DNA of 59,865 nucleotides, counting the filler, from Basidiobolus ranarum (lineage: Eukaryota): the NCBI GenBank assembly GCA_040143965.1. It is 4 parts of 4 records of this genome, joined end to end, with 100 filler letters (N's around TTAATTAATTAA, not from the genome) between each part and the next. Parts side by side here need not be neighbours in the genome. Positions count along the whole stretch, not along the records: positions 15,012 to 29,919 come from JASJQH010000406.1; 3 more parts are not named here. One strand, given 5' to 3'. Of the stretch, positions 7,324 to 56,035 are shown piece after piece. The notes beneath the pieces are model-generated. The model had not been told where the DNA came from. It saw only the letters and a program-made list of their open reading frames with translations, and did no database searches. The position numbers and the translations under genes were made by a program. How positions within the stretch are numbered: position 1 is the first letter of the stretch; every line of letters starts with the position of its first letter.

Positions 7324-10300
7324 TTTCGTCCTTGGACGGTTTGTTTTTTCCAGTGTAGATAATCCCCCCACTCTCAACATTGAGCACCATGAGTAGATAG
7401 AGAATCATAGATTTTTATCATCAATTTTGCTTGTATATACAATAAAAATAGTTCTCTAACTATATAAACGTATCCAATTATGAATTCAACATCAACAGAA
7501 ATCATGCATACGCTCGCCTGTACGCTCTGATGTAACAAACATGCCCCTTAATTATCTATATCAAAGATCCTGCTTTAGGGTTGAGAGATCATCTGCTACA
7601 CATGATGTTTCTGGACCAGTGAAGTGTTTGCTCGTGTTACCTGAATCAAGTAATTTGGATAGATATATTAGCCTTAGGAACTCCTCAAGACTGGTTGGTG
7701 GGATATAATTCTGTAACCATTGCCAAATTGAAACCTACTATGTTGCGGATAATTCAATGCAACAGTAATCAGAAGGGAATTGTCCAACAATCTAAAAAAA
7801 TATATTGATCACACTTGCTACCCAAACCCTATTGCCTTGCGCTGATGAAACCAATTGTAAAAATATCGTGAGCATATGGATCCAAGACTAATTTAGAAGT
7901 GGCCTTACTTCATGACCTGCGTAATACATTATATTTCATCTTCTTGTACGTCCAGTGTGGAATTTATTCATAGCGAAAATCTCATAGCAATGTGGTATGA
8001 AGAATCTGGCTAATCCTTGAGACTCCTCCATACGCGTAAAACACAAAGAGAACCAAAAATGAACAGGACATCCAAATCGTAGCGGATTCTTTAACCATTG
8101 GATATTGCTTCATATCGCAAATGTACAGCGAAAAAGCGGGGGTAACATGTTCTAAATTTTCACTATCAAAACAAGGAAATACCCATACAGTAAATTGAAT
8201 TTCCTTAAATGCCAAGAATCCTGATTGTCTATTTTTCACAGGCAGAAATAACAAGTTCCGATCAACCCTATTTAGTCATTTGTGCCCAACAGTTTAAATA
8301 GGCGACACAAATGACGAGGAACGACATCTAGCAAGCTGGGATGTGACACCGAATACGATATAAGGCTAATATGTACGGCACAACTTGATCATAAGCCACT
8401 CAAAAAGAATACTATCATTAATTCCGATCATTTGAGGTCCATCGAGTAGGTTTCATTTTAAAGCCTGTTTCCATCAAGAAATTCGTATACACTTGGTCTG
8501 GATAGTACTGCCGAGTATTCATTAGAATACTTCCGACGCAAGAGGGTTAACTCTGGCTTGAACTGATGCAAATTCACCCCTCTTCTGGTGACTGCTTAGT
8601 TCTATTGTCTTTTAACCAATTTATCCCACCACCATGTTGCCGTTGATCTATATACATCACGTACTGCCATGGTGAGACATGGAACTAATAATCTTCAATC
8701 ATGACATCATGGCATGTCACGAGCACAAAAGCATATTTTATACGGATCCAGACAGATAATCCTAGTGGTTGCACGCTCAAGCCCATACACACTCCATCCT
8801 ACTTTGCCAATACAAAAGTACCATACTCATTATTTCCGACAAGAAACTAGGTATTCTGACAAGGTTCTAGTATGAAGCCTGTACCCATGCTGAGAATTCA
8901 TTTCATTTTGCTATTTTATTCCCGCTATAATGATTCGGATAGCCACAAGTTTGAGTGGGCCAATAGGAGAGAGTAATATCGAGCCATATCAAGCTCTCCA
9001 CGGTCTAGACCTTGCCCATGGACACAGCCAATGAATCCATTTCAAATATGTGAAAGTCATAGAATCATAGAAGAAACCGCCGAGCCCAATCAATCCACTG
9101 GAGTCATCATCTGTAGATACTTTGGTGTAGAATCGCACCGTCGTGAGAACTACGTAGTAATAATGAACCATCTTTCCTATAAGAGAATGCGATAGCGAAG
9201 ATAATGGCATGGGTTTGTTGATGAGATACAGACTAACAATTTGAGCCAATCAAGAGTGCTGAAGCTACTAGTGCAAATCACCATCTATTTGTTCGCAATG
9301 CCATGTAAAAATCAGAGGGGATCTTCACCTCATAGCATCTAATACCTAGGTTAGTGGTCTGAAATGTAGATCGAATTTATTAGGCACACATGCTGGAGTA
9401 CATGGTACAGGGACCTCTCTAGCGCTACCATTCGCCACTACTAGCACAGCAAGTCAAACTTTGCCAAACATAATCGAAGACCTTGTGTAATCTTACGAAT
9501 ATTGTGATCGTATTCAGCTCCAAATATATAACATTCTGGATTTCTTATCTATATGCCTTAACAGAAACGGTGTTGGAAGTAATTTCATCTCCGCTTACCT
9601 CTATTGGTTGTAGATATCGTGAAGTGGTCACCCTCCAAGAGATCAGAGCACAGTGGCTGTGATCATGTCACCAAATATATAGTTTATCCTTCTTATGGTA
9701 ATAGTTGGTTTATTTCAGAGTTTCTTGCTATTTTCCCCGCATTGGGAGATTATATTGAGGTTCCTGGCGGACTAGTCCACGGTGTATGTATACTTCAACC
9801 ATATTCTGGCTGGGTGGATGAAAAGACTTCTTTTTGCATTAAAGAATGAATCTTTTAGGTATAGTATTCACTTTATGTGGAACTTTCATTTAACACTGGG
9901 CTCTTGATGTGAAAATTTCTCATTCTTGCTTTGATGATTACGCAGTTAATGTTCTATTTTTATATGACATAGTCACCCTATATATTCCTATAAATTGTTG
10001 GGGGTAATAACACAGTTAATGCAAAGAATTTCAAATATTCACAAGCTGTTAGTTGTCTATATATATATTTGAATTTTTAGTTCGCAATTGGTACTAATAA
10101 ATATAGAATATGTTGTCCCAGGCCAATGTCCGGTTTGATCCGTGATGCAAGCAATATGATAAGTCCGCTTTAGGTTACCCACCATTCTGGTTGAGGTAAT
10201 AAAAAGGAAATTGGAATGTTATTACTTGATTCAAGCGTTACAGACTTCATAGTTCCACCCACAATTTGAGTTTTAGCCTTCTGTCGTTCAGTTGGGCAGC

Positions 10301-15011: not shown

Positions 15012-15100
15012 GATTCTTAGACTATAGATTTTGATATAGTTCCTTTTGATAGAAATGAAAATACCCTGAATCAATTTCATGAATAAACTCCATTTTGCCA

Positions 15101-15634
15101 GTCATTGTACCTCAATTTCATGGATGGATCTCTATGGTTTTCCCCACTTGTTCGTGGTGAGCACGGGTGGCAGATACGTTTAGAAGGTATACAGGTTGGT
15201 CCAAGCGTAATTGAAACTACGAAGCCTATAGTTATCGACTCCGGCTCCGCTTTTATAACAATTGGTTCCGATGTGGCCGCCGCTGTCCACGAGAATATCA
15301 TGGGTGCTACGTATATCAGAAGGAGAGGCTGGTACATACCATGTCAAGGCACATCATTAAATGATGTGAGTTTTATTTTCTCAGGAAAACCGTTCGGGAT
15401 CCCTGGTACCATGCTTCCCACTGCCAAAAGAAGTACCTTAGACCCCAACTTATGCTATTCTGGTATCCAGGAAACCCCAGGGGTAAGTACTCTATCCATA
15501 GTAATGAAAAGGTGTCCAAAATTAAATACGTCTTTATTTAGGCTTGGGTTATTGGACTGAATTGGTTTGAGTTCAATTATGTCGCTTTTGATGCAGACAG
15601 TAAACGTATTGGTATTGCACCAATTCGTATTTAG
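15101..15634 (+). CDS. Pepsin-family (A1) aspartic protease, C-terminal part only
   Basis: Second catalytic motif VIDSGSAFI and YIPC. After intron 15483-15541 the frame reads AWVIGLNWFEFNYVAFDADSKRIGIAPIRI*. The 5' part is lost at the contig start, and the start coordinate is approximate. Confidence 0.85.
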
Positions 15635-16551
15635 TACAACCAGATGTTTATGATTTCCTTTAGATTTTTCTAAGTTTTTGTCTTGCGCCTATTCCCTGTT
15701 CAATAATTTCTATTTGCGATGTTTGCGAAAGTTGCTTGTATGTACGTGTTTGTTCCTTTGTCCATTACCCTTCTAACTGAATTCCCCAGACTCGGATCAG
15801 TAAAATGTAGATCGTCATTCTATTTAATCCATCTATATAAAGAAAATACCTGTTATTTTGAGAGATCTTGGTAAAGATTAAATACTCATGCTTAGATAAC
15901 CACAAATAGTACAGCTTTGCACCTTTAAGCGGAGCATTAAGTGTGTGATATACGTATGGAATAGACTGATAAGCTTTGTTGAAATACGTATCCTGAGGTC
16001 ACGTACATTCTCCATAGCCAAGCTGCTGAAAGCACGTTTTTGTCCTCTAATAGCTAATAGCAACTTTCCGAAAATACCTCAATCTAGACCATGCTAATTC
16101 CTTACTACTAAAGTCGTACGATTTTCCTAGAGACTCTCTCATACTCGTAATAGGATAAAAACGGGCAATGATATCATGAATGAAATCATTCGTTTCGCAT
16201 AAAAATAGTAACCAACGCTATTGACAGATGACGTTCAATAGAGGATCATAAACCGCTTGGATGCTGGAAATTAGGTATTTAGGTTACTGGATGGCACGAT
16301 TATATCTAAACTGTAGAAGTGAATCTACTTCGGATCAAAATACGCAATATACAGCTAAGTTAGTAAGTATTTAGCAAATTGAAATGATGCTTACCGATCT
16401 AAAAGAATGGGATAAAACGAGTGAACGTTTGATGTTGATTTCTCACGTTTCGTAATGTTATATAAAATACAGCAGTGACAAGACTCTTATCATTTATTCA
16501 TTATTGAATTCTGCTACAACGAATCTCCAGATTGTCATACAGGAAATCGAA

Positions 16552-17379
16552 ATGTCTAATATGTCCACTTCTATAGAGTCTAGTCGGTTCCGGCGAGTGT
16601 TTAAACTACACGATTTTGATCTCACAACTCCAGTCACGTCCCATTTCGTATCTCCTAAAACTCTACTGATAGTGCGAACGATTCTAGCAACTTACACCAT
16701 TATCATTGTGCTCACCACCTTTATCATCAGTTTCCCAGATCCGCTTCGTGATTATTTTGCTTACTTCACACACCTCTCTTATCTAGGCTTAACAGTTTAT
16801 CTATGTGCCGCTGTGTATCACAGTTTCCGCTACTACCGTCAAGGAGATAAATACCTGGTTAATTCGAGGATAGCGAACAGTTCATTTGCTCTATTTGTCT
16901 ACTGGCTGGCTTATCATACTGTTGTAGTGTACCATATTGTAGTTCCAGTTATATATTGGGGGACCATTTATAGATCGGATATAACAATGACTAACATTAA
17001 CTGGTGGACTACCACCTCTTGTCACGGACTTGACTTCGTTTTCATGTTTATTGAGTTTTCATTGTCCAGATGGGTTCTCAAAGTTCCTTACTTGATTTTG
17101 GTTTTATTCATCTCCGTAACCTATATGTTTTGGGCATGGATTATCTACGCCATCTATAACAATTGGGTCTATGGCTTTCTAGATTGGTATCGACCAACAG
17201 GTGCCGTGCTCGGTGGTTACTTGGGTGTTACGGCCGCATTTGTTGTTGTATGTTTCTTCATGTATGGTTTACACTATACACGGGAATATATTGCACGAAG
17301 ATTCTTTCCTCAGGAGAAAAGTGCCGATTTTTGTGTGATTGACACGGGAAGTAAAGAGTGTGTAGAAGTGAATATCTAA
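16552..17379 (+). CDS. Multi-pass membrane protein, FAR-17a/AIG1-like
   Basis: Intronless ORF with about 6 hydrophobic helices and motifs YFTHLSY, HGLD and WVYGFLDW. TATAAAA at ~16461. Confidence 0.75.
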   Translation: MSNMSTSIESSRFRRVFKLHDFDLTTPVTSHFVSPKTLLIVRTILATYTIIIVLTTFIISFPDPLRDYFAYFTHLSYLGLTVYLCAAVYHSFRYYRQGDKYLVNSRIANSSFALFVYWLAYHTVVVYHIVVPVIYWGTIYRSDITMTNINWWTTTSCHGLDFVFMFIEFSLSRWVLKVPYLILVLFISVTYMFWAWIIYAIYNNWVYGFLDWYRPTGAVLGGYLGVTAAFVVVCFFMYGLHYTREYIARRFFPQEKSADFCVIDTGSKECVEVNI

Positions 17380-17871
17380 CACTTGCTTCAATAAGTTTCA
17401 CTTAGATAGACCCACCTTCTTCAGTTTTTGCTTTGATGAATTTCTTGTTTCATTGTGGAGGGTCATTTGGTTTATTTTCAATGAGTAACCTTAAATATTT
17501 TCTGATGACGAAGGATCAAAGTTTTAGGCTTGAATACCTAAGTTTTCTATAAATACATGGCTAAAATGCAATGAAGAATTCAAATAATATTTTGAGGAAA
17601 GATTTTTTTCTTGTGCAAATTAATTACGACTTATCCCTTATCCTAACCCTAAAGCTACCAAGAGAAAGGAAAGTAAGCCAAGTTGGGAATAATTGGGAGA
17701 ATACAAAATACGTTAAGTGAAGTGGAACCAAAATCACATTAGATCGTATGGATTGATTATATGGTTGACTCACCTTAAAGTTGTGTTGGTTGAACGAACA
17801 ACTAAGAATGACATAAGAATACAACGGGAAGTTTGGCTTTAACAATGTGAGCGATAAATTCATAGGAAATT

Positions 17872-19496
17872 CTAAGGCCAAATTTTGGTTTTTTTTTCAG
17901 GGGAGTCCGAAGAATCCGAATCCTCTGTCAGCAACTGTCTCTTATGATTAAGTTCTATCGGATCTTGAAATTCATCAAGTTCAATTCTACACTCTTCGAA
18001 CTCTGGCTCTTCTAGAGTTGCTGAAAAGGTCGGGGTGTTTGGTAGGAATTCCTGGTCATCCAATGCTAATTCAGAACATAGCGCGTTATTAGCTTCTAAC
18101 GATTTCAGATCGTCAATCTAATAAGAAATTAGATGAATTCGGCGTAAGGTGTCTTATTTCAGTCACAATATGTACCTTCAAGGATACTTCATGAATTGAG
18201 GAGATAATATCTGCGATTTCTCGTTCAATTAATACATATGGATCTTCATGCTCGGGTGGTGCTTTTGCCTTTCCTTTTCCAATCGCACGATCCACAACCT
18301 CAAGTTCAAGCTTCATGCTTTGGATACGTCTTATCATAATCGCTTGCACGTGTTCTAAATGCTCAATCGCTTGGGGAAGATTCGAAATATGTTCATGTAT
18401 CAATGCCACTTTATAGTAAGTGCGAATGAGTTAAGAAATATAAGGTTTGCTTCAAAAAAATAGCATGGCTTCTGATGATGTAAAGGATATGCTTCAGCCA
18501 AGGTTCGGTTATCTGGTTTGAGAAAAAGTTGTTTCAAAGAGAGTGATTCATGATAATCAATGAGCGCCTGTCGGTAGTTTTCTAATCGTCGTATATAATT
18601 AATGACGTGATGGTGAGGGCAACATTCTTTGCTAGATTCAGCTGTTATATACAGAAAAATAGATTACCAGATTCCATGGCGATATCACCCAGTACCATGA
18701 TCACCTCAGCCAGTTTCAATTTGGCATCAACCGTGTCTATGCTTTGGTATATCTCTCGAGCAAGATCCAAGTTGTGCCATGCATTTTCGAAATCGTCTGA
18801 CTGCTCTTCATTAATCCCACTAACCAACTCTGCCTCAGTTTCCGATTCGTAACCCAACTCGGAGCCATCTAAAATTTGCATATTCGATTCTGATGTGTCA
18901 AGTAAGAGTCACGGGATGATTCGGTTGATGCAAATTTTGATTGAGGAGTTTTTGGTAGAGATATCCATAGAAGTAGACCCGAAAGTAGGTTTGGTTCACA
19001 CATAAAATAAAGGTACAATCAGTAAATATCGTGCTTCGTTGTCTCGGAATATATGCCATCAAAAAAAGGTTCGTGGGATAAGAAACCTAGGTTTTGAAAA
19101 TTCTTGGGCGATGTTTTATATACGATCGTACTTTTAACGATGTTATTTCGTTGTATCGAACTTCCAAATAACGCTTGTCCATACAGAAATAAACCATCTG
19201 CACACTGTGGAGAGGAAGAGCCATAATGCTTCGCTCTACAAGAGAAAGTCTGTCAAAAAGTGTTTCATGGCAAGTAGTAAGTTTACGTACAATATTTCAG
19301 ACGCTTCACCAAACTTGTGAGAGGCTTCTGCATATTTCAAAAGCAACATGGCATTTCTACCCTCAAGAAACAAATTCTCCACATATTGGGCGTCTTGGAA
19401 GCCCTCAGCTAAAGTTGCCGGTGTGGGCTCTTTAATTTCTGCAATAGAGCTACAAGTTTCTTCACAAGAACTTTCAGGCTCAGGTAAGCTTTGCAT
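17872..19496 (-). CDS. NASP/Sim3/Hif1-family histone chaperone (SHNi-TPR), multi-exon
   Basis: Exons translate to YAEASHKFGEASEIL, HYGSSSPQCADGLFLYGQAL, DFENAWHNLDLAREIY, LAEVIMVLGDIAMESENYRQALIDY, RTLAEAYYKVAL and KIDDLK, with an acidic C-terminus ending in a KKTK NLS-like motif. Exon structure around 18890-19130 is uncertain. Confidence 0.85.
18420..18490 (-). other. U12-type (minor spliceosome) AT-AC intron
   Basis: The minus strand reads ATATCCTTT (donor)...TTTCTTAAC (branch point) TCATTCGCAC (ends in AC). Removing it restores LAEA-YYKVAL in frame. Confidence 0.88.
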
Positions 19497-20228
19497 ATTT
19501 ATCCCGACAAAAATAAAAAAGTGTATAAAGTGAGTGAATAAAGTAGTAAGTGTCTGCTTCAGTGTCGTCTCACGAGTGAGCTCGCAACTTGTATGCGTCT
19601 TCGAAGGGGTGATTAAAATATGGATGTTCTCTATAAAAAAGCTGAAAATTTGTTCAGTGGTGTAAAAAAAAATAGGTTGAGGTCATCTAATCTCATTTAG
19701 TAAAGAGCTCATATATACTTACGATAATGGCTACAAATGATGGACTGAGTTAAGAGTGAAGAAGCCTAACAAAACTATTTAAATTGACTGATTTTCCACA
19801 AAGACCCTAGTTTATATGAATTGAAAATATCCACAAGTGAAACCACCGGGAGTTTCCCCCTATTACCAACCAATGACAACGTATTTCTTCTATGCATGCA
19901 AACGAAGTCAGTCACACCAAGACATATCTGAGCTGCGGTTCCGGCTCAGGATAACGGATCTGGCAAGGAAGTGATATTTTGATATCACTTGATTTCTCCC
20001 AATACTCCTGCTATCGAAATGGTAAATGAAGATCTAGCTGCTGCGTGATCACATACAAACAAGGCAGTAGTATTTCAAGGGTTACATATGAGTTTAATGA
20101 TTGGCACATATTAGCCCTGTGTATGTATTTAATGCAAGTAATCGGACAGTAGGTCATTTATTAGGTATGTACAATATAATTTGAATTCATTAAACTGTAT
20201 AATTTGTCTGGTGGAGGTTTGAAGATTT

Positions 20229-20888
20229 TCATTGATCAATCTCCATGCTACTTTGAAGTAAATCGTCGTCATCCTGTATTTCATAAACAGTGGCATGCAC
20301 TGATTGCTCCGCACTATGCTGACATGCTGAGTGGTACGAAGGTTGGTAGGGCACTAATTGCATTGTAGAATGATCCAAGCCTGGTGGTTGTAGTTGTACG
20401 CAGGGCTCAGAATTAGAAGGTACATTATACAGAATTCGAAGATTTTCATTTGAAAAGGTAGGATGATTGTGTCTAATCAAAGCTTTGGTTCGGACATTCG
20501 AATGAACGCTTGATGTGGGAGGTGAAGTGAAGGATACCTCTTGTAATACTTCGCCACTGGTAATGTCGACGATACGTGGTTCAATCATGGATTGGAAATC
20601 TTCAACCAGGTGACTGGCCACAGAATTCTTATAGCCATTGGGACGAATCCGTTTGGAAGAGGACACTCGTGAATATGAGTCGGACTCCACAAATTCCTCT
20701 TCCAAAGAGCGCTTAACCGAATTTGAGTTAAGTATCGCTTTCTCTCTATCGGAGTATTCGCCTGAACGCCGTTTCTTGCATGAGCCAAAATAATTTTCTT
20801 CATAAAAACCACGCTTGAAGTTGGGACAATTCTCGTTGCTGTAGGTGAAAATACTCTGATTGTTACTAGGATACTGAGTAGAGAGCAT
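20229..20888 (-). CDS. Hypothetical protein, 219 aa
   Basis: Intronless ATG-initiated ORF with basic NLS-like clusters (CKKRR, SSKRIRP) and a TATAAAAG upstream at ~20972-20979. No family recognised. Confidence 0.7.
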   Translation of the reverse strand: MLSTQYPSNNQSIFTYSNENCPNFKRGFYEENYFGSCKKRRSGEYSDREKAILNSNSVKRSLEEEFVESDSYSRVSSSKRIRPNGYKNSVASHLVEDFQSMIEPRIVDITSGEVLQEVSFTSPPTSSVHSNVRTKALIRHNHPTFSNENLRILYNVPSNSEPCVQLQPPGLDHSTMQLVPYQPSYHSACQHSAEQSVHATVYEIQDDDDLLQSSMEIDQ

Positions 20889-21492
20889 TGTGTAAAATTG
20901 AGTAAAGTAATGGAGTCGCAGAAACTTGAAGTGAATCTTTTGATCAACGGCAAACTATCGAGAATAGGTGTCTTTTATAGTGCCGTTCAACGCGACACGA
21001 CGCTTAAAATAGCGCGAAATTCTTGGGTTTTTCGAGAGTGTTCTCCAAGAATCTATTGGCTCTATGACAGGCTGATTGGTGAATCACGATCCAAATTTAG
21101 TTAGACCTTAGTTAGCCTTGAACATAAACCATGCTGGCTATATGGAATTAACTTCATTATCATAGCAAATATAGATTGTCTGCTAATTGGTTGGAGACGC
21201 ATGAGCCAATAGACCAGCCGATATTTGTGTTCAACATGGAATTTCTTAGAAGGATTCCATCTCACTATTTTAACTGGACAGGTGTACTAAAGACTAGTTT
21301 GATGATTTAACCTAAACACGAAATCACTTTATTAGTTAATAGATTGTCAATGATGGCTTGTGTTGCTTGTTTGACAAGTGCTCAATGCTATTTGGTGTAA
21401 TAAATTTTCAGTCTTGTTTATATTTATGGGTTTATATATAAAAATAAGTGAGAAAGAAAAGGGAATACCAGGGATTCGAGTGATTTGTAGCT

Positions 21493-22945
21493 TTATGTGA
21501 GTTTGGCGGCTTTCTCGTAGAGTGATTCGACAACCAAACTCATTTGCTTCAAGGTATCAAGGGAGGCCTCATAAGTCTTATCCACTGCAGGTTCTTCAAA
21601 GACGATCAAACAACCAGCTCCCTGATCCAAAATACCATGGAATACTTTATCAAGAATCATTTGAGATAACTTGGTCTCGACCTGTGCTGTAGGTAATTTA
21701 ACCATTTCTGCAATATGAGAAATCTCTACTTTAGAGAATGGCTCAATGATGCGGACCAAATTTTGCTCTTGTAGAGTATCATAAAGAGAGGCCAATTGAG
21801 AACGGATAATAGGATCCTTTCCGAGTTCTTCATTGTAAGTGGCCAAGGCGTGTTCAAATTCTTGAAGTGAGCGATTTTTATGAGCAGTAGCCACGGATTT
21901 CATAGCATCCACTTCGCGTCCAGCATAGCGAAGTGCAAGCTTTCCACTTACGATGTTGTGAACATCATCCGCTGAGCCTATCATAATCTTGCATAATAGC
22001 ATATACTTGAGGGCAAGGACAGCCTTGGGATGATCTAGTGAAGAGTATCCTTCGAATGTTTCATAAAAGTATGAATATGCCGTTTTATAATCCTTTTCTT
22101 CGGCGTGAAGGATGCCGGATTGCATATCAAGTGCAGCTTGGAGTAATGGGGGGCAGTAAATAGCATTGGCTGAGGTTCTAGCTGAAGTTAAAGCGGCCCT
22201 AGCTTTAGGCAAGCTTCTCAAGGCGTGACAAACCTGACTTTCAAGTAACTGAACTTCAATTAACACCATCTTGTCATCCAAGCGCTTCAACTCTTTTAAG
22301 AGAGTAGAGATCAATTGGAGTGATTCGGTATACATCTTGTTGTCAAGGTACAAAGCAACAAGACGAGTCTCCAAAGATTGCTTTAAGAAAATACGTTTAT
22401 CTTCAATGCACCATTGAATGTTTTCTTTGCAAATGGAGATTTGCAAATCAAGAGAGTTTGGTATGCCGGTGAAGCAGTCGACTAGTGTTTTAACTAAACA
22501 GCAAAGGGTGTATAAATATGATATAACTTTTTCGAACAAATCATTCGAAAGCGTACGTACTAAGTTTAGCAGACTTTGCTTTGGGAATAGAGGCTAGGAA
22601 TGAGCGAGAATTGCGAATCAATTCAGAGAGTTCAGTTGGTTGACTACAAAGTAAATTTCATGGTGAATATGATTGATCTCGGATTGTTGAAAAATAAAAA
22701 CAATATTTACTTGAGTTGTCTGTAAAGTTCTCCCAGCTTCAATAGAGACTGTTCCTTTATCTTTACCGATTCTTCTTTGGAAGCTATTATAAAAAGGATA
22801 TCAAAATGAATGAACTTAAATACAGTCATCAGAGTGCTTAAAAACCTGATTCATCAGCGAGGAGACGTTTGTAAATTTCCACTGCCTTCTCAGGAGAAGT
22901 TTGTACAGTTTCTTCAGCAAGTCTTAATTCGTCTTGTACCGACAT
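21493..22945 (-). CDS. RPN6: 26S proteasome lid subunit Rpn6 (PSMD11)
   Basis: Four exons (22945-22846, 22783-22711, 22643-22561, 22493-21493). Conserved [30 protein letters not shown] and PCI-domain LSQMILDK. Confidence 0.96.
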
Positions 22946-23224
22946 CTGAGATTTGTTCTTAAGAGTAAGATGTTATAACTGATATTGAAGTGACTAAAGG
23001 GAGATAAAATAATTGTACAGTCAGTTTTTTACTGCTAGCACGCTATCAATCCGTCCTTATTTTCTCTTTCTTGTTAATTGCTCACGTATACTTTGATTAC
23101 GCAATAATCAATTGCGAAAATCACATGATCAGGAATTGCTTTCGTAAAGCATTTTTTGAGTAGGATTAATATCACACTCAGTAAAGCTCATACAACTTAC
23201 ATATATCTTATTTGTATTCACAAA
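22946..23224. promoter_or_regulatory. Bidirectional promoter region of RPN6/RPN7
   Basis: 279 bp between divergent ATGs, containing ATTACGCAAT, ATTGCGAAAA, TCACATGA and GCTTTCGTAAAGC at 23096-23150. Confidence 0.6.
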
Positions 23225-24501
23225 ATGTCAGAAGCTCCCATCGCTAAAATTCCCAACTTAGATTTGGCACACTACCGATTCATAATTCATAATGGTTCCA
23301 AGGACCTACACGAGGAAGCCCAACAAAAGCTTTTTCAAGAGATAAAAGAAAATAGTAAGTAAACTGAAATGGATATCTAACTAATAGGCTGTTCTAACCA
23401 TCTCTTTCTATCAAAATATAGATATGGCTCCTTTTTATCGTCTGATGTGTGAAGAACTGAAGGTACCCATTGATAACTCCGTGTTGGAAAGTATGGAAAA
23501 GGTTAATGAGGAAGAAATTCAAAAACTTGACGTGAAGCTTCAAGATGCCGAACAAAATGCCGGTGAAACTGAAGTTAGTGACGTACTCTTGGCTAAAGCA
23601 GAGCTTTATGCCAAGATTGGTGACAAGGTATGAAATAGTTTTGATTCCTCTATGAAATGGCTCTAATTTCATTTAATAGGAGAAAGCTTTGAGTGCTTAT
23701 AAAGTTGCTTATGAGAAGAATGCCACAGTAGGATATCGCTTGGATATTATATTTGCATTTATAAGAATCGGTCTCTTTTACTCGGACAATGATCTAATTA
23801 GTCGCAATATTGAGAAGGCCAAAGGAATCATTGAAGAGGGGGGTGACTGGGATCGTAGAAATCGCCTTAAGGTTTATAACGCTACCTATTTGATGTCCAT
23901 TCGTGACTTCAAAGGAGCTTCTGGTCTTTACCTTGATACACTCTCCACTTTTACCTCAACTGAACTCATGGAATACAAGGATTTTGTCAAATATGCTGTA
24001 TTAACTAGTGCCATTAGCTTGAACCGCGTGGATATGAAAAAGAAGGTTCTCGAGGCACCTGAAGTTTTGGAAGTTTTACACGAAATCCCTGGATTAGAAG
24101 ACTACATCACTTCTCTTTATAATGGCAATTACGCCAAATTTTTCCAATCGTTGGCCTTAATGGAGGAGAAATATCTCAAGGCATCTCGTTTGTTGTTCCC
24201 TCACATGAGATTCTATGTTCGTGAGATGCGCATTATTGCATATGCCCAATTGTTGGAATCTTATCGTAGTCTTACCATCGAAAGCATGGCCACTGCATTT
24301 GGTGTCAGTGAGGAATTTATTGACAATGATTTGTCGAGATTTATCTCTGCTGGTAGACTTAACTGTGTGATTGATAAAGTAAACGGTATAGTAGAAACCA
24401 ATCGTCCTGATAACAAGAATGCTCAGTATCAGCAAAGTATCAAGCAAGGCGATTTGCTTCTTAACCGGATTCAAAAACTCAGCCGTGTCATTAACGTCTA
24501 A
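23225..24501 (+). CDS. RPN7: 26S proteasome lid subunit Rpn7 (PSMD6)
   Basis: Three exons (23225-23354, 23422-23627, 23680-24501). Conserved [19 protein letters not shown] and [18 protein letters not shown]. Confidence 0.96.
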
Positions 24502-26529
24502 ATCAACCACTACTCTGACTCTGCCAACCATCCGGTTTCCATCGTATTATAGCACATCTTTTATATATATGTCGATTGGGTTTGAACTAATAAACTGACT
24601 TTGGAAATCTACCAGTGTATTAATACCCCATATCTCATAACAGACAGTAAGCTAAAATATACTCACCAATCTATGGTGGATATTAGTCTTTGACTACGAC
24701 TCTAATAGCTACGTAAACTGACCCACTCAATTCATTTATTACCTTACATCATTCTGCATTGTAAGCTAGTTACCAACTGTATCTCTTGAGAAAGTAGTGT
24801 AAAGGTTGAGGTGCACTTCTTAGCCAATGAATAGCGGTCAGGGAGCGTCGTAATCCTTATGGTAACGGTATGTAACCGAGTTTCTTTTCAAAGTTGCATT
24901 TTAGCAGAGAACATTTCTCACAATTATTTGGTTGAAATCTATTTGCTATAAAACATATTAGAAGACCGAAAAGGTTTGGAGTGTGTGAGAACATTTGTCA
25001 TGCCGGTGATTTTTTTCTTTAGGTTTTATTCAGTCTTTATCTATTTCCCTATGTTCTTGGACAAAGTTTGAGTAAGTCAATGAAACCATTCCACTACATA
25101 TATCATCATTATGACTTCTATCTTATGTTTATCTCAATGGTGGCTGAATTGTGCTATTTTATTTATCCATCACAAGCTGTGAATCTCTAGGATTTGATTT
25201 CCAGATGTCGTTCAATAAGTGTTATTGAGGCTTTTGAAAGTATACGTTACTTGGCACTAATTCATTGAATGTCTGTAGATGAAAATACCAAATATTGTCG
25301 TTCATTGACCTACCCCACCCTCACCTCGACTTCTGCAAAGTACCTGGTACCACAGGAAAGACCCAGAGTTTTTATGCCTTTAAAGGGTATTCTGTATCCT
25401 GTTAATTTATCATGAGATTAACTTCATTGCTGATTTTCCATCTGGCATTCACTACATCTCAAAATTTTATATGTCACGCCTAGACATTGTATGCAATACC
25501 TAATCAAGCAACTCGTTTGCAATTAATAAACTTTTAGACATTGCTTGCGTAAATCTCCTTCAGTATTCAATATAGCGTTCTGATCGATGTTGTATTTGTA
25601 AGAATAGCATCACTTCTTCCTGAAACTCATGTCAAGTATGATGTTGGAATGAATTGGAAGAAACCCACTCGCAAATTTCTTGTCAAACAAATATGGACAC
25701 GACGCCAAATAGCAATCTGCCTAATCATATGACATTTGTCAAGTGCATGTCTTATCAGGCATTCAACATTATTGACTTTCTTGCTTCTATCTGTACTGAT
25801 AGAATAAACTCGGCTATTCTAATTAATATCTTTATATCCTTGGCTATATAGGACAGCAATATTTCAAATGGTATCACCCGATATTCAGGATGCTCTGAAT
25901 CAAAGACACCTGTTGATTCTGTTGTGTACGTAAGATCACCATGGGGATTCCCCAAATGGCCTTAGACTTCATAAATAGTACTTGGCTGTAGCCGATGGGC
26001 CTGATCTGATCATATGGTAAAATTCTGACTCCACTTATATGGTGACCAATCTTCAGCTCATGGAATCGGCATGCTAACCACCAAAGCACGAATTCTAGAT
26101 TATCACACAAGGTAATGTGAGGTTATGACGCAGATCTAATCACTCCAGCAAACTCAGGAACGATCGGTGCGCACGTGCTGACAATATGATTAGCATTTCC
26201 TTTTGAGGTTCTCAAAAAAAATGAGTTGACTGGGCACCGCAGCTTCCCTAATCAATGGATCTTACTCGTCAAAGCTAATACTTATAGCCCCAATCCACAT
26301 CTGATATAATCTCGGATTGTGCAAAGCATCAAGTTATCTATGCATTCAGCTATGAGTCAAAACGAATCACTATCAATCAACCTCCTTCATTCGAGGAAGA
26401 TGCTTTGACGGATGCCTATTGGCCGATTTGAATTTAACTTTTTCTACCATTTATTGTCCACCAGTGCAACCAACTTGTCTACAGCCACCTTTTGTCGTCT
26501 TTGCTTTAGTATCCTTCCTTGTTGACAAT

Positions 26530-28153
26530 ATGAAATATAGATCCACCCGTGGTCAATCTTCCGGTCTTTCTTTTGAGGATACTGTCCTTACCGGTCTAGC
26601 CCCGGATGGTGGTCTCTTTATTCCTCACGAGATTCCTACTCTCCCTGAGAACTTTCTCTCTGAGTGGGCCAATCTTTCTTTCCAAGAGCTAGCCGTCAAA
26701 ATCTTGTCCTTATTTATTGACTCCTCCGAAATACCAACCGAAGATCTTGAGAAACTGATCGAGAAGAGCTATTCTACCTTCCGTCACCCTGAAGTTGCTC
26801 CAATCCACAAAATTCGTGAACGCTTGTATATTCTCGAACTTTTCCATGGGCCTACTTTTGCTTTCAAAGATGTCGCCCTTCAGTTCTTAGGAAACTTGTT
26901 CGAATACTTTTTGGAAAGAAAAAATCGTAACCTTAAAGAAGGTGAAGAGCCACACTTTATTACCGTAGTTGGTGCTACTAGTGGTGACACTGGTAGTGCT
27001 GCTATTTACGGTCTTAGAGGCAAGAAGAATGTCTCAGTGTTTATTCTCCACCCTCGTGGCCGTGTTTCTCCTATTCAAGAAGCTCAAATGACCACTGTGC
27101 TTGACAAGAATGTACATAACTTTGCCGTAGAAGGAACTTTCGATGATTGCCAAGTAAGATACTTCCGTTATATTATCATTTATCACTCTATATCTAACCC
27201 TACGTAACTTAAAGGATATCGTCAAAGCTTTGTTTAGCGAACCTGAATTCAAAAAGGAATATAGACTTGGTGCTATCAACTCTATCAATTGGGCTCGTAT
27301 TCTTGCTCAAATTGTCTATTACTTTTACTCTTACTTCTCTCTTCTTCGTGATCTTAAGATTTCACCCAACTCTGAGGAAGCCAAAACTGTCAAAGTTCAA
27401 TTTTCGGTACCTACTGGAAACTTTGGTGATATTCTTGCTGGGTACTATGCTTACCGCATGGGACTTCCTATTGACAATTTACTTATTGCCACAAACAGTA
27501 ATGATATCCTGTATCGCTTCTATGAAACTGGCTCATATGAAAAACAAGAAGGTGACCAAGGTGGTGTCAAAGAGACTCTTAGCCCAGCTATGGATATTCT
27601 TATTAGCTCCAACTTCGAGCGGCTTTTGTGGTATCTCTCTCGTGAATGTGAAGTAGCCGACTCATCCAGTTCCTCCGCTGATCAAGATGCTGGAGATATT
27701 ATTTTCAAGTGGATGAAAGAACTAAAGGAAAATGGACGTATGAGTGTCAAACCTGAATCCTTAGCTAAATTCAAGGAAGTATTCACCTCTAGAATGGTAA
27801 ATGATGATGACACCATTGACACTATCAAACAGTATTATCAGCCTAGTGATGAAGCAACATCGCCCTATATTTTGGACCCCCATACTGCCGTTGGAATTCA
27901 CGCATGTGAATCGGTAAAATCGCAGTTTAGTGATCACTATACCGTGTCTCTTTCTACCGCGCACCCAGCCAAGTTTTCGGAAGCAGTTGAAAAAGCTCTT
28001 TTAGGCACAAATAACTTCACTTTTGAATCGGTATTGCCTAAAGAATTCATTGGTCTACTTGAGAAGGAAAGAAGATGCATACATATCAAGGAAAATACTG
28101 CAGAAGCAGTCAAACGGGTGCTCGTTGAGCAATTAAAGAAAGACCTGCAATAG
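26530..28153 (+). CDS. THR4: Threonine synthase
   Basis: Exons 26530-27153 and 27215-28153. Motifs MKYRSTRG, GLAPDGGLF, PLP-lysine motif FHGPTFAFKD, ATSGDTG, NSINWAR, VPTGNFGD and STAHPAKF. Confidence 0.96.
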
Positions 28154-29368
28154 GAACCTAGCCTTTCATAACATTAACCTCGATCATCCATATCATACCC
28201 ACATTGCACTATTTATCCTATACATAATAAATTTTCCATTTCAATATCATTAATTGAACACGAATAAGATTAGCGATATTTGAATCTATCATGCGCTGTA
28301 CCTTTTTGTGGAGCTAACTTTATTCGCTTAAATACCTTACTCTGGTACCTTGACCCAACGACGCAGCATATGTTGAGATTAGGATATATATATATACGCC
28401 TATCGTCATAGCATTTATTTATCATTTTTTTGACCATGGTATTTAAAAGGTGTAGACCTGAGAAGATTCATTGGTGTAACAGTCCTTAACAAACAAGTGA
28501 CAACTGTACACGGATCGATTACACAAATGAAGTGTCCAGAAAACCCATATCCTATTCCAAAGTCTGAGTAAATGAAAATACCACTAATATCATATATTAT
28601 TCAGCAATAAATATACCAACTTTCGATCATTTATTCTCCGCCTGAATCCGGCTTGTTGCAGATACTGTAAGTTTAAAAGTTAATGGCACAAGCTAGACTC
28701 AATGAGGCGTCATGATAGATTAGCAGTGGATGCATGAAATATAGCATTTCGGTTAATCCTAATTTTCTTACCTGGCTTCCCTTAGATACCCTAACCTGAT
28801 ATACAGCACCCAGTTTTTCACTTCGAGATAATAGCTGCTATTCAGGCAGACCGATACTAATACTAGTTTCAACATTACAAAGTTCGTGCTTATTAGGTGA
28901 CCTTTTGTAAGAAGCGCCTACATTGTCCAAGATATCCCTGAACCTGGTACTCAATACACTATTATTTGGCCATCTGAGTTCTTAGTTTCTTCTATCTATG
29001 GGGAGTTTTAAATTACCCCACTGTGTGGAGATAAGAAACGGTGGTTGAAATGATTTACAGTGACAGGCAGATGATTGGCTGGAATAGCGATTACTAATAC
29101 AATCCAAAGTTATCACTAAGTGAATCCTAACAACCCGAGATTTGCAGGTACTATGCGTAATGTTTGGTAAAATAAGAACAAAGATGATTGGTCACTGAGA
29201 GCTATGATGCTGACAAAACGGTGGTCTCGGCTACTAAAGATATCAACCGAGGTTGAATATATAGAGGAGGTATTTCGCATTTGTTCTGAACGTTCCTTTT
29301 ACCTAGCATTTCGCAGGTACTTCTTGCTTTTACACCAACTCCTTAGCATCTTCCTTCATTCTTACATC

Positions 29369-29919
29369 ATGCTGGATTTCCCTAACGCCAGAGTGGAGCA
29401 GTACGTCGGTACACAATCTTTCATGCCAACCAGGGAAGCCATTGTGTCAATCGATCTCAAAGTCGAAAATGCAAGTGAAAAACGAAAAGAGATTTGGAGG
29501 GCCTTTAACGACACTTACACTCTATACGAAGATCTTTTTGACTCCATTACTGATAAAGCACACTATGTGCGCGCTGATCCACTTAGACATCCATTAATAT
29601 TTTATCTGGGCCACACTGCTGCTTTCTTCATTAACAAGCTAGTCCTGGCAAAAATCTTGAAGTATAATGAACGTATCGATCCCAGTCTGGAATCATTGGT
29701 CTCTGTTGGGGTTGACGAAATGTCTTGGTGAGTTTCGGTGCCAAATTGTTTCCTAACATAGTCTTGATATATAACACGCACCATTTCCTTCAATTGTATA
29801 TAGGGATGATCTTCTTTCCGACGACTACTCTTGGCCAACATTAGAGAGTATTCGTAGCTTTCGTTCGCAAGTACGTTCCCTCGTTTCCGAGGTGATTCTA
29901 GAAAGACTGCCCTTGAATG
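29369..29919 (+). CDS. ovoA: OvoA-type 5-histidylcysteine sulfoxide synthase (ovothiol biosynthesis), N-terminal part; cut by contig end
   Basis: Exons 29369-29727 and 29804-29919 (intron GTGAGT...TAG). The protein KRKEIWRAFNDTYTLYEDLF...LRHPLIFYLGHTAAFFINKL...VGVDEMSWDDL...YSWPT matches the recalled N-terminal DinB-like region of OvoA. Confidence 0.85.
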
Positions 29920-30019
29920 NNNNNNNNNNNNNNNNNNNNNNNNNNNNNNNNNNNNNNNNNNNNTTAATTAATTAANNNNNNNNNNNNNNNNNNNNNNNNN
30001 NNNNNNNNNNNNNNNNNNN
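29920..30019. other. Artificial contig spacer
   Basis: N44-TTAATTAATTAA-N44. Confidence 0.98.
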
Positions 30020-49203: not shown

Positions 49204-51892
49204 ATGGGTTTCCACACAAAAGCTCTTCTCGTATTAGCCTCTGCTTGCTTGGTACTTAATTTCTCTGCAGCCTTTGATGTAAGTCATCCAGTTCATAGGT
49301 TAAAGGATCCAAAGCCTATCAAACTAACTCTCTTTTGAACTATCTGAAGGCCAGTTGCAACAACAATCTTGTAGCATGTACGTACACCTTGAAAGACTGA
49401 GGAGATCCTCATGTATATGCATTTACTTACTATTCCATTCTCTAGATTGGTAATTTGTAATCTTGGCTGAGCATATAGACTCCGATTCTAAACTAGTGGT
49501 TTCTCTTTTTCCCATTGCTATCTCCATCAATTCTAGGGGTCAAAACAGTTATGGCGGTGGAGGCGGTGACTCTAGTGGCTGGCAGAAGAACCTCGCCTAC
49601 TATTGCCAAGACGACACCATTGATATCATCCCTGTTTGTTAGTTTCCTCTCATTTGATGATTTCAAAGTATGAGTGTACTGACTTCCTTCAAGCATTTTT
49701 AAACACATTCTTTGGCAAAGGTGGATTTCCTGAGCTTAACTTGGCCAATGTAAGTCCATCATCACCATAGGCTATTTCACACGAAACTAATCCGATGAGT
49801 TTCCTGGTAGACTTGCAACATGAAAGATAATGCTACTTTCCCGAACACTAATATGGTCAATTGCCCAAGCATTGGTGATGACATTAAATTCTGCCAATCG
49901 CGTGGTAAATCTGTTATCCTTTCACTCGGAGGTGCTGGTGGTTCGTATGGATTTCAAGACGATACCCAAGCCAAGAACTTCGCTACTCAAGTTTGGTTAG
50001 TAGCCTTTGAGTTGTAAATTCAAATAAGAAGTTGACGCTTAAACGGGGTACTTTTAGGAACTTATTTCTGGGTGGTAAATCAGACACCAGGCCATTTGGT
50101 AGTGCTGTTCTAGATGGCATTGATCTCGATATCGAAGGTGGTGGCCCTACAGGTTACGTTGCGTTTGTCAACCAACTCCGTTCCTATTATCAACAAGATA
50201 CCAGTAAGAAATATTTGATTGTGGCTGCACCTCAATGTGTTTACCCTGGTATGTTACCTTTACACCATTACCCAAGACTTGGCCAATGAGTTCTGATGAT
50301 CCGATATTTAGATGGGCAACTTGGTAGCACTTTAAATAATGCTTGGTTCGATCTCGTCTTTGTGCAGTTTTACAATAATCCTTGTAAGTTGTCGAACTTC
50401 TCTTCACAAGTACTGGAAACTCTTCAGTAATACGTATGTTCGGTCAATTAGGTGGATTGCAGTACTACAACAATTACCAAGCCTGGAACTTCGGTATCTG
50501 GGATTACTGGGCTACCCATATTTCACCCAATCCCAATGTTAAGATATATATTGGTGCTCCTGCTGCGCCAAAAGCTGCTGGATCAGGGTAAGTATCGACG
50601 TTATTGCATATTCCTTATCTATCCATTAACATTCTTGACCACTACTAGCTATGTGTCCATTGACCAGCTAAAGACTATTGCCCAAGAAACGCGTGCTAAC
50701 TTCTCTAGCTTCGGTGGAGTGATGTTCTGGGATGCATCGCAGGCTTGGGGTAATAGTGTTGGAGGGGGAAATTATGGTCAAGCAACTAAACAGGTAAATC
50801 CATTTACTGCAAACATAGAGCGTCATAGTTGCTTTCAACAACTCATTTTGAATCAACATTCAACTAAACCAACCTATTTAGTTCCTCAAAAATGGTGGTG
50901 GCTGCAATGTGAAACCCAACCTTCCATCTTGTAACTCGGCTCCAGTTTGGACTCAAGCTGGTTCATACCCTGGTGGTTCGGTGGTTTCATATAGCGGATA
51001 TATTTGGAAAGCTCTCTGGTGGACCCAAGGACAGGCACCTGGTACTACAGCTGGATATTGGAGTGCCCTAAGTGGATGCTCTGGTAACAGCGCTAGTTCA
51101 ACCATTACCTCAGCCACTTCGACAACCACTACTGCTTCGTCTCCTATCACAACATCTGCCACATCAACTACTGCTAAGTCAACCTCGAATGTACCCACCA
51201 CCACCTCTACAACTTCTGTACCTACTACCACCCAAACTCCTGGTGGTTCATGTGCCAATGTAGCTGCTTGGAGCTCAAGTGTTGCTTACAATGGGGGTCA
51301 AAAGATCAGTTACAATGGTCATCTCTGGCAGGCAAAATGGTGGACACAAAATGACACACCTGGAAACAATGGTCAGAATGTTTGGACTGATTTAGGTTCC
51401 TGCACTTCCATTCGTAGAAGATCACGTCGTGGAATCCCCGAAGTTGATATTGGCCCTGCTACTAAACCAACGGACTTTTTGGTAGAGAAAGCCATTGGTA
51501 ATTTCTTGGTCACTTTTAGTAACCTCAAACTTGAGTCCAATGAGTTCCAAATGGGAGTAAGTACTCTATCATCAAGTACGTACACACAGTTTTTCCATTG
51601 CTAACTGCTTTCACATCATTGTCAGATCAAGATTACTTCCCAAAAGCCAGGTAATGCTATTTCCGATCAATGGAAGCTTTCTTTTCCCTTTGATTCTACC
51701 GTAGTTAGCGTTAATGGAGCCAATTCTGGACAAAACCAAGGAACTCTGGTTTTATCTGCAGCCGCTCCTAAGGATGAAGTCAAAGCTACGCAATTCATGT
51801 CAGTATTCGTGGATATTAATGGAAAAGTCGATGCCAAATCCTTGGATAAATTCCCTTTCCCTGACATTAGCAAGGCCGTATTCTCATCCTAA
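49204..51892 (+). CDS. Secreted GH18 chitinase (class III / CTS1-like) with two CBM5/12 modules and a C-terminal domain
   Basis: Signal peptide, YWGQN, LSLGGA, catalytic [19 protein letters not shown] and FGGVMFWD. Two W-rich AxWWTQ modules are separated by an S/T linker, followed by an RRRSRR site. More than 10 introns. Confidence 0.94.
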
Positions 51893-53431: not shown

Positions 53432-55504
53432 TAATCTAGATTCACTCTTTCATATTCAAAAGACCTATAATGGTATTTATAAATCTCATACTTATCCTTT
53501 GGAGATATTTGTTGCCGAATATGATCCATTGAATTAAGTTGAATCCTTGGGCATCAAGATCATCCATGGAACTACTGTAGGTACCTAGTAAATATGGAGC
53601 CTTGGTAGATCATGAGTGGTATTTAGAAATCTGATGGATCCTATCAATGATGCTATGGAAGTCCCAGGAAAAGTATTTCGCTTAATTAATATACAACTGG
53701 AACATAAGAAATGTGATATCTTTAGCTCGGAAACGCTTTTATTTACTATCTTAATATTATCACCATCTGTCTTAGGTGTTGGAACCTTAGATTTGAAAGG
53801 TATTCCGGTAAGGTGGGTATACATATATATATCCCAAGTACCTGCTCTGAAGATCTAGTCGCATTGTTTTACCGCTTTCAGTATTAAGTAATCTAAGACA
53901 GGAAACATTTAATATGCATATTTCAGATGCGTAATCAGAAAATCTAATTTATCCGGAACGGGGTTGTCGATCATTTAAGGACAGTTTTCTGAAATACTCT
54001 ATCATATCAGCATGTTATTTTATTATTAGATATCGAACTGTGATAGTCTAATCACTTGAAATAATTCACGAAATCATAATTATGTGACGTCATTGAAATT
54101 TTTCATTTATATTTCAAATCCTCTACTGGAGGTCAGTTGGGTGGTGTGGCATCTACCTAAGCTTCTGAGGAACGGATTGGATGAAGACTTGAGTGGCAGG
54201 CTCCTGCTGGTGGGTCCGATTCATGTTGAGGACGTTGCTTTCGGGAGCCTGGTGTTGACATTGATCGATCGAATAATTAGAAGTACCAAGGCTATTAAAG
54301 ACCTGGGGAACGCGTGAGACTGGCAACAGAGTAACGAAAATCAAGCGCACTGGAGCAGCCCGAGGTTGGCAAGTCTGAAGGACTACCCATTTTTTGGCAT
54401 CATACTTAATAGACACTAAAAAAGAAAATCCCATTTGAAGGCAACTATCGGTTTAGTATGAATACCAATAAGATAGTTGTGAGCTGGGGGAATTATGAAT
54501 GTGGGCAAGGAATGTGGGCGAGAACTCTTTGTGTTTATGGTATATTATGATATTCCACAATGCCTAGTCCTATTAAAGCCAACATTCGTAGTGGTGTCGG
54601 TCAACGGTTTATTTCTGGGAAGGTAGAATCCAATCTAACTTACATGCCCAAATGTCGATAAATAAATTAAATCTAACTTCTTACCCAAATGTCTGGGTGA
54701 GTAGTACATGAAAACAGCATACGATGGAGTTGCAGTTAATTGATAACTTGGGAACAGAATGCATCATTAATAGTGATATTAAAAAATTTGCTGTAAAATA
54801 GAACATTGAATTCTGCCTATTTAGTCGTAATTTCGGGTTTGTTACTCATGTGTTACATGACTGTGAATCTGACATTCCAACGAGCCTGAGGTTTTGATTA
54901 GGTTAGTCAGATGACAATTCATTAAACAAATGAAATCCCTATATTCGGATCAGTAATACTATTTTCAACGTCTTATGAGACTGGACACCATGTACTGAAC
55001 AACACACTGGTAAGAGAACCTTACTAAGTTTCTAATTTATTGCTTATCTTTTCAGCAATTCCAATTTCTTTATTAGTGTATAACTTGATGGACACATCCG
55101 TCGGTTTTAGCAGTAGTTGTGTTTTAGAGGCACGCCAAGCTATTATATCCTTAACCATACCTTGCGCCTTGTATTCAAATGGTTCTTTGTAGAGGGAACA
55201 AAGAATAACTGTTATAACTAAAGTCTTTCTAATGTTGGAGTTAGTTTGCGGCTATATTCTCATTCAAAAACCGATACCATTTAGGCTATAGTGCCAAGCT
55301 GAAATTCACTTCAATCCTTCTTTTGATGAATATTAGATGCCCTTTTTTACTGGATCAACGTCATGCCCAAATTAGTTACAGTCTCTGTTTTTATCATATT
55401 TCCAGAGAACTGCCAGCTTGATCTAATTTACTAGCAACGTTAAATTTACATAAAAGCTCGCCAGTTTTGTTAATGTCGAGACAACAAACATTTTATTTTA
55501 CGCC

Positions 55505-56035
55505 ATGCCATTAATCATGCCTCGTCCACGTCCGTACTGCAAGGACGACCTCGGGAATGTACTGAACTTGACTCAATGTGTCATTTCACCAAAGCCTGGA
55601 ATTTTATTGGATCTAACTCAGTCGGTGAACTTGACGTTCATTTATAATGCATCTGCCGAATGTAACCCGTATGGAGATCATGCCCCTTGGCCAATTTATT
55701 TTAATCCTGAATCCAGAGGAGATCTTCTTGAGCTATCTAGGCCCGGAAGAGTGGGCTCTTCAAAATTGAGTCAACTGGAATTCGGAGACCTCCCGGACAT
55801 CTTACCATACACTAAATCCACCGCGAATTATAGTGGTTATTATCACATAATGAGTGAGTTTGAAAAGCCAGTTGACAACAAGTGGGCTGTTGGTTTAAAC
55901 CTAGGAAGACTCGAGTTTGAATGCATTGCTCCTCTTGATTACACGTATGTCAAGTCCAAGCCTGGTACTTCGAATGCTTCTGTCGTAAGGATTTCATATG
56001 CATTACTTGTATTCTGCGCAATGGCTTTCTTTTAG
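55505..56035 (+). CDS. Unknown Cys-containing protein with C-terminal hydrophobic (GPI-signal-like) tail, paralog A
   Basis: Intronless 176-aa ORF. It shares QCVISPKPG, SAECNPYGD, PVDN, CIAPL-YTYVKS and SNASV-RISYALLVFCAMA with paralog B. Confidence 0.75.
   Translation: MPLIMPRPRPYCKDDLGNVLNLTQCVISPKPGILLDLTQSVNLTFIYNASAECNPYGDHAPWPIYFNPESRGDLLELSRPGRVGSSKLSQLEFGDLPDILPYTKSTANYSGYYHIMSEFEKPVDNKWAVGLNLGRLEFECIAPLDYTYVKSKPGTSNASVVRISYALLVFCAMAFF

Follow-up and report, generated by a model that had tools for sequence, protein, structure and literature searches.

An intron-containing ovoA gene in the fungus Basidiobolus ranarum, with a conserved paralog and a predicted route to ovothiol

The window analysed here, a stretch of 59,865 nucleotides from the amphibian-gut fungus and occasional human pathogen Basidiobolus ranarum, consists of four contigs joined by N linkers, of which positions 15012-29919 represent the single contig C406 of the genome assembly (G000). 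At the 3' end of this contig, exon 1 of an ovoA gene begins with the ATG at 29369 and extends to 29727 on the plus strand, comprising codons 1-119, the TG of Trp120 and the start of a DinB-like domain. It is followed on the same strand by a predicted spliceosomal intron of 76 nt (29728-29803; GT-AG, phase 2) with the boundaries GTGAGT...TATAG and a CTAAC at 29753-29757, which divides the TG|G codon of Trp120 in GVDEMSWDD, and by the start of exon 2 (29804-29919, plus strand), whose frame is open up to the contig end at 29919, where the gene is truncated after 158 visible codons. The protein reads ...LRHPLIFYLGHTAAFFINKL...GVDEMSWDDL...WP, and the first-pass annotation had described the gene accurately in its N-terminus, its canonical intron through a Trp codon, the GVDEMSWDDL stretch and the roughly 158 residues. 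The adjoining linker between contigs (N/TTAATTAATTAA/N, 29920-30019, without strand) is artificial and not biology, and beyond it lies unrelated contig DNA.

Upstream of ovoA, the threonine synthase gene THR4 (26356-28153, plus strand, two ORF segments) provides a synteny anchor shared with contig C8443, and profile matches identify the main exons of two genes for the 26S proteasome lid, RPN7 (23680-24501, plus strand) and RPN6 (21496-22593, minus strand). Because threonine synthase, RPN6 and RPN7 reside on the same contig, C406 is eukaryotic, and the earlier claim of a nuclear gene stands; bacterial contamination was rejected. The assignment of the gene itself to a fungus is a probable one, based on its best OvoA hits. 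Among the genes identified on C406 there is no ovoB-type neighbour. Further upstream on this contig, an intronless ORF for a multi-pass membrane protein (16456-17376, plus strand) has no Pfam or NCBIfam match.

In the TIGR04344 profile (ovoA_Nterm), exon 1 covers positions 3-93 (E 2.7e-29) and exon 2 positions 95-127 (E 7.8e-6), and since these positions are consecutive, the arrangement is the one that splicing would be expected to produce. With 102.3 and 25 bits, the two window pieces, as well as a piece on contig C1653 (119.8 bits), are too short for the TIGR cut-offs. In sequence searches against solved structures, exon 1 best matches OvoA-Th2 (8KHQ, E 4.8e-20), followed by EgtB-IV (E 1.6e-12), and Arg73, Tyr79, His82 (an iron ligand), Val115 and Asp116 of the window copy correspond to R62, Y68, H71, V102 and D103 of OvoA-Th2. 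The N-terminal RxYH and the D of the OvoA composite motif, which include the first iron histidine and the cysteine-binding Arg/Tyr, are therefore present in the window copy, which begins straight at the DinB-like domain with no N-terminal EgtD domain ahead, unlike Egt1 and EgtB I-III. In the composite motifs of PMC11030361, the N-terminal motifs are common to OvoA as well as EgtB-IV; what differs is (Y/F)AF versus NWF. As EgtB-IV also has the RxYH and GVD motifs that can be read here, the product could not be settled from the window by itself.

The genome holds five related pieces, located on C7808, C1653, C8443 and C7094 in addition to the window copy on C406. The piece on C7808 is a complete paralog of 847 aa with a 64-nt intron at a position identical to that of the window intron. 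Its exon 2 alone passes both OvoA models (TIGR04344, 433.9 with a cut-off of 400; TIGR04345, 229.1 with a cut-off of 170) and remains below the cut-off for SenA (134.5 of 420) and EgtB (TIGR03440, 132.8 of 360). Each of the OvoA-Th2 residues named in PMC10696552 (H71, H162, H166, R62, Y68, V102, Y406, F409, T413) is matched by the same amino acid in the paralog and in P0002, a protein of B. meristosporus; in the paralog R78, Y84, H87, H183, H187, Y457, F460 and T464 correspond to R62, Y68, H71, H162, H166, Y406, F409 and T413, and its residues agree with the published composite motif of OvoA. The HX3HXE iron motif and the catalytic tyrosine that corresponds to Y406/Y417 of OvoA are seen in the paralog (H183, H187, E189, Y457) and in the B. 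meristosporus proteins P0001 and P0002, as are the histidine-site phenylalanine and the YAF motif (F460 and Y490-A491-F492 in the paralog), a region that is unassembled in the window copy. The best solved relative of the paralog is likewise OvoA-Th2, with E 6e-135 for OvoA versus 5e-11 for OvsA. A structure model of P0002 (pLDDT 86.8) also matches 8KHQ first (E 4.9e-75); the rmsd to 8KHQ is high, a hint that the two domains are set at another angle to each other.

The Tyr-Ala-Phe motif sets OvoA apart from EgtB-IV and AshA. EgtB-IV (8VIG/8VIH) and AshA (9PHY) belong to the same family branch, are OvoA-derived and attack C2; PMC13674229 presents AshA as a two-domain OvoA relative with H526-F527-Y528 at the YAF site. 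Both carry NWF or HFY and their methyltransferase is absent or vestigial, whereas the paralog and the B. meristosporus orthologues have YAF and a methyltransferase over the cut-off. The HxxxHxE motif, a sulfatase-type FGE domain (matched by PF03781) and a C-terminal methyltransferase, for which the first-pass annotation had advised to look, are all found in the paralog, and an Egt1/EgtB-type protein or a loss of the iron histidines, which it had named as refuting, is seen there in neither the TIGR03440 score nor the residues. The TIGR04344 match at both exons, OvoA-Th2 as best hit and a YAF-bearing paralog over both OvoA cut-offs thus confirm the window gene as the 5' end of a nuclear ovoA of Basidiobolus. 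With OvoA-Th2 of Hydrogenimonas thermophila and the OvoA of E. tasmaniensis, the Basidiobolus proteins share the domain order, the iron ligands, the cysteine-binding Arg/Tyr, the catalytic tyrosine, YAF and the SAM motif DLGCATGR, and OvoA-Th2 is the best match in sequence and fold. In contrast to bacterial OvoA, they are encoded by fungal nuclear genes with an intron, are about 130 aa longer and contain clade-specific inserts, and Basidiobolus differs from the bacterial systems also in having two copies plus a stand-alone methyltransferase; the activity of its enzyme is a predicted one.

The first-pass annotation had proposed to recover the rest of the gene from other contigs, which succeeded for the 3' end, probably, and for a complete paralog. 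C1653:1-444 comprises the final 147 codons of an ovoA and begins at the contig edge. The sister locus on C8443 carries THR4, a DNAAF5-like gene and remnants of a decayed ovoA from its 5' and 3' parts, and aligns with the end of C406 and, in eight segments, with C1653, including its start. As C8443 bridges both contigs, the ancestral order was THR4-ovoA-DNAAF5, and in all likelihood C1653 follows directly on C406 in the genome; from this synteny, C1653:1-444 is most likely the 3' end of the window copy. The C-terminal SAM methyltransferase is whole in the paralog, and its last 147 aa on C1653 are tied to the window copy in this way. After the duplication, one locus retained ovoA and the other DNAAF5 (reciprocal gene loss), and a dS of 0.87 for the THR4 pair makes the duplication of the sister loci more recent than the divergence of the two ovoA genes. 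Of the window copy, the middle part (534 codons, 153-686 of P0002) was not found in the assembly with the paralog's exon 2, P0002 or three family models as queries, and because these codons are unassembled, its two further iron ligands and the catalytic tyrosine are not visible. A side observation is the DNAAF5/HEATR2-like gene itself (L010:1225-4048 on C8443), a dynein arm assembly factor in a flagellum-less fungus; its sister on C1653 (L015:703-3540), located downstream of the 3' end of ovoA, has decayed.

The paralog's best matches are two B. meristosporus proteins, with 85% and 80% identity, and a protein identical to it is labelled Basidiobolus ranarum. This species holds two intact ovoA copies, ORX96010.1 (P0002) and ORX91743.1 (P0001), which are 82-89% identical to the visible parts of the window copy; together with a stand-alone methyltransferase (ORY04178.1) it thus shows the same state as B. 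ranarum, in a different species and by machine annotation only. By sequence, P0002 is the probable orthologue of the window copy, with a modest advantage in identity (85 versus 82% and 89 versus 86%). In the tree, P0002 and the window piece form a group (84/92), whereas P0001 and C7808 form a pair that excludes the C1653 piece (91/95); diagnostic sites, split 5:5 and 3:5, favour neither side.

We consider it quite probable that Basidiobolus has retained two functional ovoA genes over a long time, that the window shows the 5' end of one of them, and that these serve a route from OvoA via an Egt2-like lyase and methylation to ovothiol A. The full protein would be a two-module OvoA of about 840 aa, whose non-haem iron sulfoxide synthase would use O2 to link cysteine to histidine at C5. 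One of three Egt2-like enzymes would most likely be the PLP-dependent C-S lyase that then frees 5-thiohistidine, and either the SAM domain at the C-terminus or its stand-alone counterpart would methylate it to ovothiol A, which may serve as a cellular antioxidant. The coupling and methylation steps are expected from family membership, and we infer the lyase and the antioxidant role; the window copy's middle is presumably intact and the genes are presumably expressed. The ovothiol pathway that had been proposed from the window is in this respect probable, given the OvoA cut-offs passed by the paralog, its active-site residues and its methyltransferase. PF00266 gave 14 matches; nine of these loci were classified, with scores for 11 out of 25 candidates, and three proved to be Egt2-like lyases (E 1.9e-41, 6.5e-41 and 3.8e-43 to N. 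crassa Egt2). Since Egt2 and OvoB are described as each selective for its own sulfoxide in the review PMC9103826, the assignment of the lyase is uncertain. The stand-alone OvoA-type methyltransferase on C7094 (L012:1492-2460, 322 aa) passes TIGR04345 (222.6 of 170), like the stand-alone OvoM/OvsM enzymes (9BXL, 9BXH), and is 78% identical to ORY04178.1; it may perform a second methylation or salvage 5-thiohistidine. As it carries the insert of Basidiobolus OvoA, its source appears to be the fungus's own ovoA lineage and not a bacterial ovoM. Besides, on an AT-rich giant-virus MAG contig from IMG/VR (23% GC), the gene for a 1009-aa OvoA (TIGR04344 511.6 of 400) and that for an Egt2-like C-S lyase (E 1.4e-30) stand head to head (L121:3576-7961), one independent case of this pairing and a possible viral ovothiol cassette; the viral OvoA is closer to that of Vitrella than to the Basidiobolus clade.

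Several other readings have to be weighed against this route. The window copy might be a broken or decaying duplicate, with the C7808 paralog alone working, as its middle is unassembled and the third copy on C8443 (L010:709-941) has indeed decayed to 5' and 3' scraps with stops, its middle gone. However, the window copy has an open frame at both of its visible ends, which show strong purifying selection (window piece against the paralog, 158 codons, pN 0.084, pS 0.81, saturated; C1653 piece, 146 codons, dN 0.078, dS 2.3), its splice sites are canonical and P0002 is intact, so that we regard decay as improbable. About equally improbable is that OvoA replaces Egt1 and that ergothioneine, or both compounds, arise from hercynine made by two EgtD-like methyltransferases and are completed by Egt2. 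No Egt1 was found in the 13,754 contigs of G000, an assembly that misses part of the window ovoA: TIGR03440 and PF03781 have one match each, the OvoA paralog, and the two PF10017 matches are stand-alone, intronless, bacterial-type EgtD-like genes, so neither half of Egt1 was detected. Egt2-like lyases are present, and PMC10696552 states that OvoA-Th2 takes hercynine with about 50% coupling, also yielding ergothioneine sulfoxide, and oxidises cysteine. Against such a replacement, OvoA retains YAF and an intact methyltransferase, the separate methyltransferase copy is conserved, and the EgtD-like proteins stay under the TIGR03438 cut-off (261.7 and 263.2 versus 290.9). In addition, the latter have Ser/Asn in place of Met252 and Gly in place of Glu282, two EgtD positions that we take to determine histidine specificity, which makes hercynine synthesis by them doubtful. 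The importance of Glu282 in EgtD is in print (PMC8593015). These EgtD-like genes (L018:1344-2315 and L019:1471-3048, both minus strand), with their changed substrate pockets, possibly encode aromatic amino acid betaine synthases, and the protein from L019 is extended at its N-terminus by about 200 residues, putatively a further methyltransferase. The selenium analogue (ovoselenol or selenoneine) that the first-pass annotation had offered as a variant was rejected and appears hardly credible: although the paralog's methyltransferase domain scores slightly nearer to OvsM than to OvoM (1e-43 versus 1.4e-38), G000 has no SenB match and no SelD over the cut-off, the sole match being sub-threshold and AIR-synthase-like, and the low SenA score and weak OvsA match go along with an active-site motif of the OvoA type, which differs from the xNEH..HRH of OvsA/SenA.

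A further possibility concerns the origin of the gene rather than its product, namely a recent bacterial transfer into Basidiobolus. According to PMC7466969, Basidiobolus has many genes transferred from bacteria, most of them with few introns; ovoA has one intron only, and among the best 120 matches of the protein searches there is no named fungus besides Basidiobolus, with named bacteria at 40-47% identity. Nevertheless, the closest relatives after Basidiobolus are unnamed environmental proteins (P0003-P0005) at 48-56%, with bacteria next in the search with the paralog at 40-44%, and a profile search of 50% representatives and a further search added P0122, P0133, P0137, P0263 and P0276, all without taxon. 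A mixture-model tree unites 11 rows in a clade (SH-aLRT 99) with no named bacterium inside, based on 62 chosen rows, quick mode and an alignment to a profile from the same clade, which may favour the clade. FastTree with 172 rows gave 97 for a six-row core and 88 for a wider group including a Bdellovibrio MAG protein, a grouping dropped since it is gone under the mixture model. Independently of the trees, 13 of 73 measurable proteins have an insert of 25-30 residues in their methyltransferase, each of them from Basidiobolus or a clade relative, and the insert is seen in none of the 56 measurable loci among 160 from GTDB genomes and metagenomes. Moreover, P0263 begins ...LLPR-DDLL, where homology ends exactly at the Trp codon and is followed by an Arg, the residue expected from an AG|G acceptor, as if it shared the phase-2 intron; it is one of ten proteins starting near the intron point and known as protein sequence only. 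Together, clade, insert and P0263 start suggest an old eukaryotic lineage and make the recent transfer unlikely. Of the earlier claim of an anciently retained or horizontally acquired gene, long residence in eukaryotes therefore appears to fit better than recent acquisition, and since the tree is without labelled animal or choanoflagellate OvoA and its deepest branching is open, inheritance from an opisthokont ancestor and ancient transfer are indistinguishable. No link to Holozoa emerged, as a Corallochytrium-labelled methyltransferase (P0461, label from its id) is without the insert. Scans of metagenome, viral and GTDB contigs for clade members gave, among the matches listed, 27-49% best-segment identity, and the ESM Atlas returned general OvoA clusters alone and nothing on the clade lineage.

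Building on the predicted ovothiol route, a wider scenario, which we hold for possible yet somewhat below an even chance, is that Basidiobolus swapped its fungal thiohistidine: Egt1 would be gone, ovothiol would be made via an OvoA of an old, mostly uncultured and possibly early-fungal eukaryotic lineage, and an orphaned Egt2 would act as lyase. The fungal Egt1/Egt2 pathway uses a related sulfoxide synthase fold, and Basidiobolus has its Egt2-like lyases, although Egt1 was not found there. In the overview given in PMC8433421, ergothioneine is the thiohistidine of fungi, and ovothiol that of bacteria, protists and marine animals. This split can be put to a direct test in a land fungus that is culturable, has two conserved ovoA genes and shows no detectable Egt1. 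Such a fungus also offers a testable answer on the eukaryotic lyase acting after OvoA, as OvoB-like proteins are, in the same overview, not found in animals apart from hydrozoans. If this wider scenario is correct, Basidiobolus would be the first fungus shown to make ovothiol and would supply a candidate for the missing eukaryotic lyase. Its redox defence is of some interest; the OvoA chemistry itself is known.

As to novelty, this is a real and conserved OvoA gene, unusual for fungi and already machine-annotated in the sister species B. meristosporus, one of whose copies bears the UniRef name 5-histidylcysteine sulfoxide synthase. The present locus adds a second ovoA that is under selection, a stand-alone methyltransferase, an apparent lack of Egt1 beside Egt2-like lyases and the deep unnamed clade. 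We found no literature on ovothiol in Basidiobolus or devoted to a fungal OvoA. The study of Gerdol et al. 2019, reportedly the main OvoA phylogeny, may list fungal sequences, as may Braunshausen and Seebeck 2011. Fungi are named among the carriers of OvoA homologues in a single sentence each of PMC4768315 and PMC12631010. No paper discussing ORX96010.1 or ORX91743.1 was found; neither accession is named in the two supplementary files of PMC11291939, and the supplements of PMC7466969 could list such genes as transfers. The novelty that had been suggested for a fungal OvoA is therefore reduced by the annotated orthologues and the two mentions, but the gene is not widespread among named fungi in the best 120 matches.

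Elsewhere in the DNA, two adjoining genes (L016:8151-8606 and 9321-9899, both minus strand) encode CHAP domains, a bacterial-type peptidoglycan hydrolase domain, the first of them confirmed by Pfam. In the window, a chitinase-like gene with two CBM5/12 modules lies at 50011-51889 (plus strand), and two similar ORFs (55454-56032 and 57354-57947, plus strand), each encoding about 195 aa and ending in a hydrophobic C-terminus, are tandem paralogs to which Pfam has no match.
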